A DNA stretch of 64,000 bases from positions 4,900 to 68,899 of the forward strand of contig JAGAJR010000017.1 of assembly GCA_017626035.1 (NCBI GenBank). Direction: 5' to 3'. The position numbers and the translations under genes are program-made. Shown one piece after another: positions 57,973 through 63,985 of this stretch. Below the pieces are notes generated by a model, which did no database searches, was not told the DNA's origin, and saw nothing but the letters and a program-made list of their open reading frames with translations. How positions within the stretch are numbered: position 1 is the stretch's first letter; each line of letters opens with the position of its first letter. The DNA is from Alphaproteobacteria bacterium (lineage in GTDB: Bacteria > Pseudomonadota > Alphaproteobacteria > RF32 > CAG-239).

Positions 57973-58587
57973 ATGAAAAGTATTGTTTCTGCAAAGAAAA
58001 AAACAAACCGCCGCTATGGTGCGAATTTGTGGGGTGATCCGAAAAGCCCTTTAAATAAAAGAGAATATGCTCCGGGTCAGCATGGTCAGAGAAGAAAAAA
58101 ACAGACTGACTACGGTGAGCAATTGTATGCAAAACAAAAATTGAAAACATATTATGGTAACATTTCCGAGAAACAGTTCCATAAATATTATGTTGAAGCT
58201 ATCAGAAGAACAGGCGATGCTGCTGAAAACCTTATCGGTTTGTTGGAATCCCGTTTGGACAACCTTGTTTACAAAGCTAAATTTGTTCCGACAGTTTTTG
58301 CTGCCCGTCAGTTTGTAAACCACGGCCACGTTACCGTTAACGGTAAAAAAGTCAACATTCCTTCTTATATGGTTAAAGTTGGCGACGTTATTGAAGTTCG
58401 TGAAAAATCCAAACAGCTTCCTATCGTTATTGCCGCAGTTGAAGCTGCTACCAGAGATGTTCCTGGATATTTGGAAGTAGATAACAAAAAATTGACAGCC
58501 AAATATACTTTCACACCTAAGTTTGACGATGTTCCTTACGGTGCTGTTATGGAACCAAACCTGGTTATCGAATACTACTCAAGATAA
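57973..58587 (+). CDS. rpsD: 30S ribosomal protein S4
   Basis: [49 protein letters not shown] almost invariant S4 core. Confidence 0.9.
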
Positions 58588-58606
58588 GAAGTTTTCTTAT
58601 CGTTTC

Positions 58607-58647
58607 AAATCCCCGGGACTTATGCAAGCCTCGGGGATTTTTGCTTT
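58607..58647 (+). terminator. terminator-like hairpin after rpsD
   Basis: AAATCCCCG...CGGGGATTT 9-bp stem, 16-nt loop, followed by TTGCTTT. Confidence 0.55.
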
Positions 58648-58717
58648 AAATATGTTTTTTTTTATGCTTATATGTGGAAATGATAGGTGTTGTTTTTGTA
58701 ACAAGGATATAAAACAA

Positions 58718-60958
58718 ATGCATGACGTTATTATTGATGCTCCAAATCAAACTATTTCAATAAAGAACAAAAGGCTTGGACGGCCAAGAAAAAAACGCAA
58801 TTGGGGCGTGTATTTGTTTGACTGGCTGGTCAAAGGGCTGATGTTGTCTCTGCTTATCAGCATTAATTTTGTTTTATATTCAACGTCGGGCAATTATAAG
58901 CTTTTTCCTTCCGAATATATGCTTGCTCCGGAAATATTGTATATTTTGGCAGGAATATTCAGTGTCGTTATCGGTGTTTTGTTTCTGGTTTCTTTTTCAT
59001 CCTTTTTTCAAAATTTAATCAGTTCTTTTGTGGTGGCCGGTTTTGTTTTGGCAATGCTGAACCAGTTTGCGTTGTTTGATAAAACATCTATTCTTTCCGT
59101 TTGGGTGGAACAATATTTCGGAGCCGGTCCGGCACAATATTTCGTAGGTATTTCGCATATTGTTTTGGCTGTTGCCGCCGGTGTTTGTTTCTTTATTTTT
59201 CTGGTTATGGCATCCAATCAGAATATTGCGTATTTTACGGGCGTGTTGTTGGTTATCTTTGTCGGAATACTTGCCGATGCGTATTTACTGAGGGACAAGC
59301 AGGGGGCTTATAAGGTCGTTTATGACAATAAGCTTCAGGGAGAGCAGGAAAACGGCAAAAAATTTATTTATATCTTTTTGCCGAATGCTGCCGCTTATAA
59401 TTATCTGGAAGATATGAAAGAGACGAATACCAATTCCGACACTATTCAAAAGACGATGGATATTATGCTGGCTTTTTATGCCAAAAATAATTTTATGTTT
59501 TATCCGAATGCGTATGTGAAAGAGTTAGATCCTTTTATGAATATGGTAAAAAGCTTTAACAACGTGAATAAGCAAGATGCGGAAGCTTTTACTCTTAAAA
59601 ATGTGATAATGGACGGGTATTGGCGTTTTGACAATATCAGTGATGAATATGTTTATTTGAAAGACAATCATTTGTTTGACACTTTTCGCAAGGCTAAGTA
59701 CCGGATTTCCGCATATCAGTCCCGTGGAATCGATATGTGTCGCAAAAACAATGATATAGCTGTGGATAAATGTGTCGAAAAGCTTAATACGCCTATTAAT
59801 TTTGATGTGTTAAATGTTTCGGAAACGGAAAAGATAATTGTTTTGTTTTCTCAATGGATTAACAGTACCGGCCTGTTTCCGAACAAATCAACACTTTATA
59901 CATTGTTAAAAGCGGTTACGAATTCGGATGAACTTCCTTTGGTCGGAATTCCTTATGACGGTTTGTATGTGGTTGATTCCCTCAATTCATTAGATATGGC
60001 CGCAGAAGATATTGCTAAGGACAAGGGAAACCGGGCTTATTTTGTGTTTGTTGATTTGCCTGCGGATATGTTTGTTTATAATGAATTCTGTAAGGTGAAG
60101 AATCCTTCCAAGTGGTTGGCAATGGAGAGTTTGCCGTGGATTGTCAATAAGAATCTTTATAGCAAAAGAAATGCTTATATGGAACAAACGGAATGTTTGT
60201 ATGGCAAACTGGAAGAATTTCTCGGCAAGCTTAATAAAAACGGGCTGCTTGATGATTCCGTTATTGTTATTCAAGGTGTAAGCGGAGCTGATGATTTGCG
60301 TAATGTTCTTGATACCAGAAACTTTATTGCCGATTTTAAAAATAAGCGTTTGGTAACCATGGCTATCCGTGATCCTTTGAAAAAGAAATTTTCTTTGAAT
60401 TATGATGTTTGTTCGGCTCCGGATATTGTTAAGCAATATCTGTATAAGAAAGGAAAATGTCAGGAATTGGCATCTATGGAAATGCATGACGGAGCCAAGG
60501 ACGAAATTAAGGAAACTCTGAAAAAACTGACAATTTCAGAGGAAAATATTCATAAAGCAATGGTTGTGTTTGACAGTTGGTATAAAGATTGGGAAAAAGC
60601 CAGCAAAATTAAAGTCGCTCCGAATTTGCTGAAATCCAGATTAATGCCTCCGGGATTTGTTCCGAAAATGCAGCTCCCTGAAAACGAAGAGGGTGCCGCA
60701 AATGATAATGCTGAACCGGTTTCAGAGGAGAATGCTGTTGAAGGGGAAAATGTATCTGAAAAAGAGCAGGTAACGGATATTGGGGAAGAAGTTAATCTGG
60801 GAAAGGCCAAGGTTTTGGAAAATCCGGTAGAAATTGTTCCGGAAGATGAAGTTCAGGATTTTGGTAGCATGATGGCTAATGAACCGATTGAGGAAGAAAC
60901 TAATCCGGTTCCGGCTAATGATAATTCGGAAAAAACTTCGGCAGCGGCAGAAAAATAG
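58718..60958 (+). CDS. large polytopic membrane protein with divergent sulfatase/phosphoethanolamine-transferase-like periplasmic domain and acidic C-terminal tail
   Basis: About 5 N-terminal TM helices; soluble domain layout resembles the alkaline-phosphatase superfamily (KFIYIFLPNAAAY...; DDSVIVIQGVSGADD in place of an SDHG-type motif); AAGGAT RBS before the ATG at 58718; the upstream in-frame extension overlaps rpsD and its terminator. Confidence 0.45.
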   Translation: MHDVIIDAPNQTISIKNKRLGRPRKKRNWGVYLFDWLVKGLMLSLLISINFVLYSTSGNYKLFPSEYMLAPEILYILAGIFSVVIGVLFLVSFSSFFQNLISSFVVAGFVLAMLNQFALFDKTSILSVWVEQYFGAGPAQYFVGISHIVLAVAAGVCFFIFLVMASNQNIAYFTGVLLVIFVGILADAYLLRDKQGAYKVVYDNKLQGEQENGKKFIYIFLPNAAAYNYLEDMKETNTNSDTIQKTMDIMLAFYAKNNFMFYPNAYVKELDPFMNMVKSFNNVNKQDAEAFTLKNVIMDGYWRFDNISDEYVYLKDNHLFDTFRKAKYRISAYQSRGIDMCRKNNDIAVDKCVEKLNTPINFDVLNVSETEKIIVLFSQWINSTGLFPNKSTLYTLLKAVTNSDELPLVGIPYDGLYVVDSLNSLDMAAEDIAKDKGNRAYFVFVDLPADMFVYNEFCKVKNPSKWLAMESLPWIVNKNLYSKRNAYMEQTECLYGKLEEFLGKLNKNGLLDDSVIVIQGVSGADDLRNVLDTRNFIADFKNKRLVTMAIRDPLKKKFSLNYDVCSAPDIVKQYLYKKGKCQELASMEMHDGAKDEIKETLKKLTISEENIHKAMVVFDSWYKDWEKASKIKVAPNLLKSRLMPPGFVPKMQLPENEEGAANDNAEPVSEENAVEGENVSEKEQVTDIGEEVNLGKAKVLENPVEIVPEDEVQDFGSMMANEPIEEETNPVPANDNSEKTSAAAEK

Positions 60959-60973
60959 TTTTGGAATAGTATT

Positions 60974-62026
60974 TTGTTTGCAAAGCTCAGAGATAAAATA
61001 TTTGGAAATCTTTCTCCTATAACACAACGGAGAATATATGCTTTTAAGAAGAATAAGCGGGCTTTTTGGTCTTTGGTAATTTTTATTGCAGTTTTTTTTC
61101 TGAGTTTATGTTCTGAATTAATATCTAACGATAAGCCTTTGATTCTTAAATATAAAAACTCTTTTTATTTTCCCTCTTTTGTTGAATATTCCGATTTGGA
61201 TTTCGGAGGGGATTTTCCTACGCCGGCAGATTATACGGATCCTTATCTCAGCCGGAATATCAGGGAAAACGGTTGGATGCTGTTCCCGTTGATACCTTTT
61301 TCGTTTAATACGGTGGATTATGAATTGGATGTTCCGGCTCCGGCCGCTCCAAGTAAAAATCATTGGCTGGGAACAGATGAGGAAGGGCGGGATATTGTTG
61401 CCCGTGTATTATACGGTTTGCGGTTATCAATTGTTTTTGCTTTTGTTTTAACAATAGTGTCTTCTCTTATCGGTGTGTTTGTCGGTGCGGTGCAGGGGTA
61501 TTTCGGCGGAAAAATTGATATTGTTTTGCAGCGTTTTTTGGAAATTTGGGAATCTCTTCCGCAGTTGTTTATTTTAATCATTGTTTCCAGCATTTTTGTG
61601 CCGACATTTTGGACGCTTTTAATTATTTTATTGTTCTTTTCCTGGACTAATCTGACCAGTGTGGTTCGGGCAGAGTTTTTGCGAACCCGAAATTTTGAAT
61701 TTGTTCGTGCGGCCAAGGCTTTGGGGGTGAGTAATTTTCGGATTATTTACAGACATATTCTGCCTAATGCCATTATTGCAACAATTACATTTGTGCCGTT
61801 TATTTTGTCTGAAGCGATTGTTTCTTTGACTGCTTTGGACTTTTTGGGCTTAGGGCTTCCTTCCGAATATCCGTCTTTAGGTGATTTGGTGCGTCAGGGA
61901 AAAGATAATCTGCAGGCTCCGTGGATTGGTATAACGATTTTTATTGTTCTGTCTACACTTTTGACTTTGCTGATTTTTATCGGAGAAGGGGTGCGGGATG
62001 CTTATGATGCAAGGAAAAACAGATAA
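60974..62026 (+). CDS. yejE: peptide/microcin C ABC transporter permease YejE
   Basis: Colinear with E. coli YejE (SLCSELISNDKPL, DFGG, NHWLGTD, VVRAEFLRTRNFEFVRAAKALGVS, NLQAPWIGIT); probable TTG start. Confidence 0.85.
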   Translation: MFAKLRDKIFGNLSPITQRRIYAFKKNKRAFWSLVIFIAVFFLSLCSELISNDKPLILKYKNSFYFPSFVEYSDLDFGGDFPTPADYTDPYLSRNIRENGWMLFPLIPFSFNTVDYELDVPAPAAPSKNHWLGTDEEGRDIVARVLYGLRLSIVFAFVLTIVSSLIGVFVGAVQGYFGGKIDIVLQRFLEIWESLPQLFILIIVSSIFVPTFWTLLIILLFFSWTNLTSVVRAEFLRTRNFEFVRAAKALGVSNFRIIYRHILPNAIIATITFVPFILSEAIVSLTALDFLGLGLPSEYPSLGDLVRQGKDNLQAPWIGITIFIVLSTLLTLLIFIGEGVRDAYDARKNR

Positions 62027-63624
62027 TGCCGTTGCTTGATGTGAAAAATTTATCTGTTTTTTTTAAGGCAGATTCAGAAAAAGAAGATTATATTCAAGCT
62101 GTTAAGGGAATTTCTTTTAGTGTGGAAAAGGGAGAAGTTCTGGGAATTGTAGGGGAATCCGGTTCCGGAAAATCAGTCAGTGCCTTGTCCGTTTTAGGAC
62201 TTTTGCCATATCCCAGAGCCAGCCATGATCAGAAGTCATCCGTAAAATTTGAGGGGCGGGAACTGCTTCATGCCGGAGAAGCTTTTTTACAAAAAATCAG
62301 AGGAAATGAAATATCCTTTATTTTTCAAGAACCTATGTCATCTTTAAATCCGTTGCATACGATTGAAAAGCAAATATCCGAAACATTAATGCTTCATCGC
62401 GGAATGAGTGCAAAAGATGCCCGCAAAGAAGCCGTTCGTTTGTTAAAACTGACAGGAATCAAAAATGCCCAACAAAGGTTAAAGTCTTATCCTTTTGAAT
62501 TGTCGGGAGGGCAGCGACAAAGGGTGATGATTGCCATGGCTGTTGCCAATAACCCAAAATTATTGATTGCCGATGAACCGACAACAGCATTGGATGTTAC
62601 AATTCAGGCTCAAATTATTGATTTATTGCTGGATTTAAGAAAAAAACTCGGAATGTCAATTATTTTTATCAGCCATGATTTATCGGTTATTCGTAAAATT
62701 GCGGATAAAGTTTGTGTTATGAAAGACGGTAAAATTGTGGAGCAGGGAAGTATAACCGATGTTTTTGAAAATCCGAAATCAGATTATACTAAAACTTTAA
62801 TAAATTCTCATTTGCTCTTGAAAAATAATGATAAAAAGCACCCGTATTCCATCTTGGATGTTAAGAAAATGTCTGTTGTTTATCCGATAAAAAAGAATTT
62901 TTTGGGAAAAGTTGTTGAAGAGCTCAAAGCTGTGGATGAGGTTTCGTTGTCCTTAATGAAGGGGGAAACGTTAGGAATTGTGGGAGAGTCCGGTTCAGGA
63001 AAGACTACTTTGGGATTGGCTGCAGCCAACCTTATTCGAAGAGATAAAGGCGATGTTTGTTATAATTTTGATGAAAATCAGAGCGTTAGTCGGATAAATG
63101 AGAAATATATCCGCAAAAATATCCAAATTGTTTTTCAAGATCCTTATAACTCATTGAATCCTCGGATGAATATTGAAGAAATTGTTGGAGAGGGCTTGGA
63201 TGTGCATTTTCCGTCCTTATCAGTTAAGGAGAAAAAGTCCAGAATTGTAAAGGTATTGAAAGAAGTCGGATTGAACAGCAGTATCCTTTCAAAATATCCG
63301 CATGAATTTTCAGGAGGACAACGGCAGAGGATAGCTATTGCCAGAGCTTTAGTTTTGGAACCGGAGATTTTAGTTTTGGATGAGCCGACATCGGCATTGG
63401 ATGTTACAATACAAATGCAAATTGTAGAATTGTTGAATAAGATACAGCAAGACCGAAATTTGAGTTATATTTTTATTTCGCATGATATGAATGCAATTAA
63501 AGCTGTTTCGGACAGAGTTGCGGTTATGAAAGACGGAAAGCTGGTGGAGTTGAAAACTGCGACAGAAATTTTTAATTGTCCTGAAAATGATTATACCAAG
63601 AAATTAATTGCCGCAGCTCTGTAA
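62026..63624 (+). CDS. yejF: peptide/microcin C ABC transporter ATP-binding protein YejF (duplicated ATPase)
   Basis: Two Walker A (GESGSGKS) and two LSGGQRQR signature motifs; overlaps the yejE stop. Confidence 0.9.
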
Positions 63625-63949: not shown

Positions 63950-63985
63950 AAAAAGGCTCTGATTAATATCAAAGCCTTTTTCTTT
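63950..63985. terminator. possible bidirectional terminator hairpin in AT-rich region
   Basis: AAAGGCTCTGAT-taat-ATCAAAGCCTTT flanked by A- and T-runs. Confidence 0.4.

Follow-up and report, generated by a model that had tools for sequence, protein, structure and literature searches.

The locus described here raises the question of what the importer genes yejE and yejF do in an operon that carries neither yejA nor yejB and is headed instead by a gene for a large membrane protein, called X in the following. It lies in a 64-kb stretch of DNA that was analysed as a whole (the window), the coordinates of which are used throughout. The identities given to yejE and yejF in an earlier, sequence-only reading of this DNA are borne out: YejE scores above the cutoff of NF011596, the NCBIfam model for the microcin C permease (451 versus 439 bits), matches BPD_transp_1 with an E value of 7e-27 and aligns with E. 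coli YejE at 55% identity, with no large gaps, while YejF, a protein with two ABC_tran domains and 48% identity to E. coli YejF, has YejF as its best NCBIfam match, at 653 bits and thus below the equivalog cutoff of 834. The Walker A, signature, Walker B and H-loop motifs, read off the translation, are intact in both halves of YejF, and so is the coupling motif of the permease in YejE. Across the clade, the median identity to the window proteins amounts to 83% for RpsD, 72% for YejE, 61% for YejF and 36% for X. Judging from their sequences, YejE and YejF are under purifying selection, and the strong conservation contradicts the idea that yejEF are pseudogenes. The locus resembles that of the YejABEF importer in its orthologue-level YejE and YejF matches, its intact motifs and its overlapping genes, as in canonical operons, but differs from it in that yejA and yejB are missing from the X-yejEF operon and that the gene of an unrelated, apparent pseudo-enzyme occupies the promoter-proximal position. 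In other bacteria, transporters of the Yej type influence resistance to antimicrobial peptides and the recycling of the cell wall (PMC4994006, PMC9790009).

That yejAB do not lie upstream of yejEF had also been remarked on, and this extends to the relatives examined. Queries with E. coli YejA and YejB returned nothing from the window by tblastn; in 88 related loci with ±10 kb flanks, the same kind of search found no YejA homologue and, for YejB, only a weak match inside the yejE of locus L061. The 10 kb past each window end, which were read from other contigs encoding identical edge proteins, contain neither ABC-permease or peptide-binding-protein Pfam families nor a second BPD_transp_1 gene. 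An arrangement with X between yejAB and yejEF was found in none of 80 species, and X is hence no lineage-specific insertion between these gene pairs. A fusion of X to YejE, YejB or YejA in some species was discarded as well, there being no phmmer match to YejE, YejF, YejB or YejA among 216 family proteins.

Coordinates of the operon and its flanking elements are collected in Table 1. The terminator of rpsD folds with -18.9 kcal/mol (z -2.95), and its hairpin and T-run recur in 48 of the 48 rpsD-linked sources analysed (the window counted), with stem changes that preserve pairing. The promoter-like block that follows is composed of a -35 element TTTAAA (58645-58650) within the conserved TGCTTTAAAT, a spacer of 17 nt and an extended -10 element made up of TG (58665-58666) and TTATAT (58668-58673); column conservation is at least 80% over 41 distinct spacers. 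The strict promoter pattern is present in 35 of 79 loci, with rpsD upstream in all 35, and the block would act as the promoter of X. These upstream elements were found via comparison between loci; a generic promoter/terminator scan performed no better than on shuffled sequence. At the other end of the operon, the hairpin behind yejF (-16.4 kcal/mol, z -4.64), which also appeared in the terminator scan, likely ends both X-yejEF and the convergent downstream gene, which encodes 114 aa and was seen 3' of yejF on a longer contig encoding an identical YejF.

Table 1. Features of the X-yejE-yejF locus, in window coordinates.
Feature	Position	Strand	Remark
rpsD intrinsic terminator, hairpin followed by T-run	58607..58640	+	upstream boundary of the X-yejEF unit
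Conserved promoter-like block	58645..58673	+	from spacer alignment across loci
Shine-Dalgarno-like AAGGA	58703..58707	+	10 nt 5' of the X ATG; read off the sequence
Gene X, encoding an inner-membrane protein of 746 aa whose family is uncharacterised	58718..60958	+	NCBI MBO5443037.1, 'hypothetical protein'
X transmembrane (TM) domain, aa 29-190	58802..59287	+	five TM helices and two interfacial helices (122-142)
X periplasmic alkaline-phosphatase-fold domain, aa 195-632	59300..60613	+	non-catalytic, judged by sequence
X codons P222-N223-A224, end of first core strand	59381..59389	+	alignment and strand order
X codons I518-Q-G-V-S-G523, in the place of the (S/G)DH(G) metal-ligand motif of enzymes	60269..60286	+	alignment
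X acidic disordered C-terminal tail, aa 633-746	60614..60955	+	pLDDT <50
yejE, ABC permease, 350 aa, TTG start	60974..62026	+	15 nt past the X stop codon
yejF, fused double ATPase, 532 aa	62026..63624	+	ATG overlaps the yejE stop (TAATG)
Strong hairpin between A-run and T-run, two-way terminator	63950..63981	.	about 330 nt 3' of yejF

The open reading frame of X spans 58523-60958, and translation from the ATG at 58718 gives the 746 residues. We accepted this start because the N-terminal sequence MxDIIID is conserved in 49 homologues (M1 in 94%, D3 in 88%), because AAGGA precedes it by 10 nt, and because the rpsD-to-X spacing is conserved at about 120-135 nt; a purine-rich block also marks the AAGGA position in the spacer alignment. 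About five N-terminal TM helices had been noted in the protein encoded ahead of yejE, and hydropathy and the AlphaFold model agree on five (about residues 29-55, 71-90, 95-117, 146-164 and 167-190). The N-terminus is rich in K/R, with nine such residues among the first 40, which places residues ~195-632 in the periplasm. Six invariant cysteines are found in this periplasmic domain (C341, C352, C458, C493, C565 and C581). The cytoplasmic loops are very short, leaving almost no cytoplasmic surface, and the fold of an ABC type I permease, with its cytoplasmic coupling helix, did not emerge from a structure search with the TM domain only. X would thus be unable to replace YejB in ATPase coupling, and the idea that it is a diverged YejB was abandoned, given the wrong fold and the lack of cytoplasmic loops. 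Searches of Pfam, NCBIfam and PDB sequences yielded no usable match for X. When clustered at 90% identity, its homologues form about 80 groups; 153 representatives reach E<1e-30, and relatives occur in 124 species genomes, so that X is not a chance open reading frame; it defines an uncharacterised protein family without a Pfam or NCBIfam model.

Structure prediction assigned to the periplasmic part of X the alkaline-phosphatase fold that had been suspected, and not an unrelated one. The AlphaFold model (pLDDT 80.5, pTM 0.76) has LtaS, sulfatases, PbgA and MCR-1 as its best Foldseek matches, with E values of about 1e-6, and the domain is accordingly predicted to contain the alkaline-phosphatase core. 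The catalytic positions, which were placed by alignment and strand order without residue-level superposition, no longer carry the residues of the enzymes. Among 49 gut-clade homologues, no column of the periplasmic domain holds His in at least 60%, and no acidic residue is conserved at the canonical metal-ligand positions. Where alkaline-phosphatase-type enzymes hold a metal-binding Asp/Glu, the gut clade has P222 (46/49), N223 (41/49) and A224 (39/49); where they have D-H, it has Q519 (46/49), G520 (49/49), [LIV]521 and S522 (45/49). The strand concerned, SVIVIQGVSG, aligns to the D-H strand of the enzymes, both in hhalign against LapC and through distant members with IHGDKG, which agrees with the earlier remark that X diverges where SDHG is expected. 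The nucleophile region at the helix start after strand 2, a position likewise set without superposition, reads YPNAYVKELDPFMN; only P263, A265 and N275 are conserved there (at least 90%), D271 occurs in 33 of 49 homologues, and no Ser, Thr or Cys is conserved among the 49. The defining metal ligands and nucleophile of the LtaS/EptA/MCR-1/EptC/OpgB-type transferases (PF00884) are hence absent from X, which does not match PF00884 Sulfatase above the gathering score; four of the 49 members match it at E 0.026 or worse, and the best E values are 0.026 in the gut clade and 3e-4 in one distant homologue. Since distant homologues carry His/Asp motifs at the same columns ([SAG][DGN]H, AHxxLPHxPY and IHGD[KR]G), the gut clade represents a degenerate branch of the family. 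Of the two options left by the sequence-only reading, an envelope-modifying enzyme or a pseudo-enzyme, the former is unlikely, as the gut clade has no conserved His and no acidic residue at the canonical ligand positions, whereas the latter fits better, with a role in binding or sensing: X appears to be a pseudo-enzyme of the kind represented by PbgA/LapC.

PbgA/YejM/LapC is an LPS-sensing pseudo-hydrolase of E. coli and Salmonella. It shares with X the five N-terminal TM helices, the interfacial helices and a periplasmic alkaline-phosphatase-fold domain devoid of the usual catalytic residues, and PbgA was the match with the most aligned residues (140) in the TM-only search. At the sequence level, hhalign of the X family against E. 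coli LapC found one short segment, the degenerate 'DH' strand of both, with a probability of only 5.5%; neither X nor its 48 aligned homologues match the PbgA/LapC models DUF3413 and NF038282, and the distant homologue P0178 matches NF038282 weakly (E 0.001, 17.5 bits versus a cutoff of 825). Read off the sequence, X is without the D-X9-H motif that PbgA carries after TM3 and that was defined for PbgA-type proteins in PMC7018646. Features that set X apart from PbgA/YejM/LapC are its six invariant cysteines, its long acidic tail and its operon shared with yejEF, whereas E. coli yejM lies ~6.5 kb from yejABEF in a separate operon.

The linkage of the three genes was followed through 80 species-level genomes of gut Alphaproteobacteria. 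yejE directly follows X in 79 of the 80 loci and yejF is in place in 77, all exceptions being contig ends. In 59 measurable loci, the gap between X and yejE has a median of 5 nt and ranges from -50 to +19 (15 nt in the window), with an overlap of the two genes in 21; between yejE and yejF, the overlap is 1 nt. The trio is also intact in the 26 species without rpsD directly upstream, in some of which it stands right behind gatB. Such a tight and conserved operon supports some functional tie of X with yejEF. Outside the clade, relatives of X at about 19-25% identity stand alone without yejEF (outgroup loci L090, L091, L092, L094 and L095), and three of these (L090, L091 and L094) show that the rpsD-X and TPR-methyltransferase-X neighbourhood predates the link. 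X consequently has a function of its own that is independent of YejEF, and the X-yejEF link is therefore specific to the gut clade. Most of the distant homologues retain His/Asp motifs. P0168 and P0184, two distant homologues without yejEF, have lost most of the His motifs as well, so that motif loss did not coincide with the gain of yejEF.

How X and the importer proteins belong together can be explained in several ways. Our preference, which falls a little short of even confidence, is that X is a ligand-binding or sensing pseudo-enzyme in the same pathway as YejE-YejF, heading the X-yejE-yejF operon. X would no longer carry out transfer or hydrolysis, but would bind or sense a ligand of the envelope on the outer side of the inner membrane, by analogy to PbgA/LapC with LPS, and might have an accessory, receptor or regulatory role in the pathway of the YejE-YejF translocator, made in fixed proportion with it through the translationally coupled operon. 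Here we infer physical contact of X with YejE or YejF, the nature of the ligand, and a transporter that would work without adjacent YejB and YejA. Against this explanation, conserved co-transcription may reflect only a dependence of yejEF on the X promoter, and X homologues outside the clade do not adjoin yejEF. Less probable, albeit a serious contender, is that the neighbourhood is historical and implies no joint function: X would be an autonomous PbgA-like envelope protein, as it is in lineages with X alone, and yejEF would have arrived behind it in the clade's ancestor and been kept in place by dependence on its promoter. YejE-YejF would form a normal peptide importer, either together with a permease of the YejB type and a binding protein from genes at other sites or as a YejE homodimer with an orphan binding protein. 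The five outgroup loci in which X occurs without yejEF speak for it, as do the older rpsD-X and TPR-methyltransferase-X arrangement, the canonical look of YejE, which lacks large indels relative to its E. coli counterpart, and the example of Agrobacterium, where the gene of YepA, the binding protein used by YejBEF, lies outside the operon (PMC9790009). It is harder to reconcile with the lack of a YejB-like match outside yejE within ±10 kb in the 88 loci, with the stop/start overlaps of X and yejE (21/59), which suggest coupled synthesis, and with the trio having survived relocation in those 26 species (of 80) that have no rpsD directly upstream. Besides, it entails a split of the two permease genes, which is unusual for a peptide ABC importer.

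Two further explanations give X a part in transport itself. It is unlikely that X, YejE and YejF together make up a complete, non-canonical ABC importer, in which a YejE homodimer with YejF would form the translocator and X, with its acidic tail as a fishing line, would replace the soluble binding protein together with the second permease's share in substrate capture or gating; candidate substrates would be cationic host peptides or cell-wall fragments. Rather unlikely, too, is that X replaces both missing parts, the periplasmic domain capturing substrate in place of YejA for a translocator of a YejE homodimer and YejF. This would agree with the lack of yejA and yejB in the operon of every species examined, the position of X at the operon head where yejAB would be, its tight coupling to yejE and its large non-catalytic periplasmic domain, but X homologues exist without any transporter, the TM domain is not permease-like, and no ABC importer is known to have an alkaline-phosphatase-fold receptor. 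We consider it quite improbable that X is still an enzyme, working through non-canonical residues such as D426/D431/D435/D446/E456, K355, K461, R484, Y454 and Y487, with YejEF importing a product of its envelope substrate. The periplasmic domain does have several conserved residues of acidic, basic and aromatic type, and PbgA/YejM, also classed as lacking catalytic residues, is reportedly called a metalloenzyme in the title of one paper, 'The essential inner membrane protein YejM is a metalloenzyme' (PMC7576196); nevertheless, no His is conserved, the nucleophile position has no conserved Ser, Thr or Cys either, canonical ligand positions are taken by proline and glycine, and Pfam Sulfatase is reached in only the four of 49 members mentioned above. 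Almost no credence is given to the idea that yejEF are what is left, in decay, of a yejABEF operon that lost yejAB by deletion. This idea draws on the absence of yejAB and on nothing else, while 77-79 of 80 species have the two genes intact, their median identities are far above that of X, and every ATPase motif as well as the permease coupling motif is preserved.

The X family has the architecture of PbgA/LtaS/EptA, with one branch that appears to be without any catalytic residues. If X does work with YejEF, as we prefer to think, it would be the first alkaline-phosphatase-fold pseudo-enzyme tied to a binding-protein-dependent ABC importer, and the importer would be a rare one for peptides without a second permease gene; either point, if true, would alter assumptions on how such transporters are built. 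Even without joint function, the locus illustrates the evolution of a PbgA-like pseudo-enzyme outside Gammaproteobacteria, and X-yejEF constitutes a conserved envelope locus in widespread, uncultured gut Alphaproteobacteria.

The acidic C-terminal tail of X, already apparent in the sequence-only reading, counts 27 D/E versus 8 K/R in the window protein and is predicted to be disordered. It is net-negative across the clade (median -17) and varies in length from 12 to 263 aa. An interpretation of the tail as an adaptation linked to yejEF was dropped, as it is acidic family-wide. One short stretch of the tail, aa 694-717 (nt 60797-60868), stands out in the motif alignment as semi-conserved.

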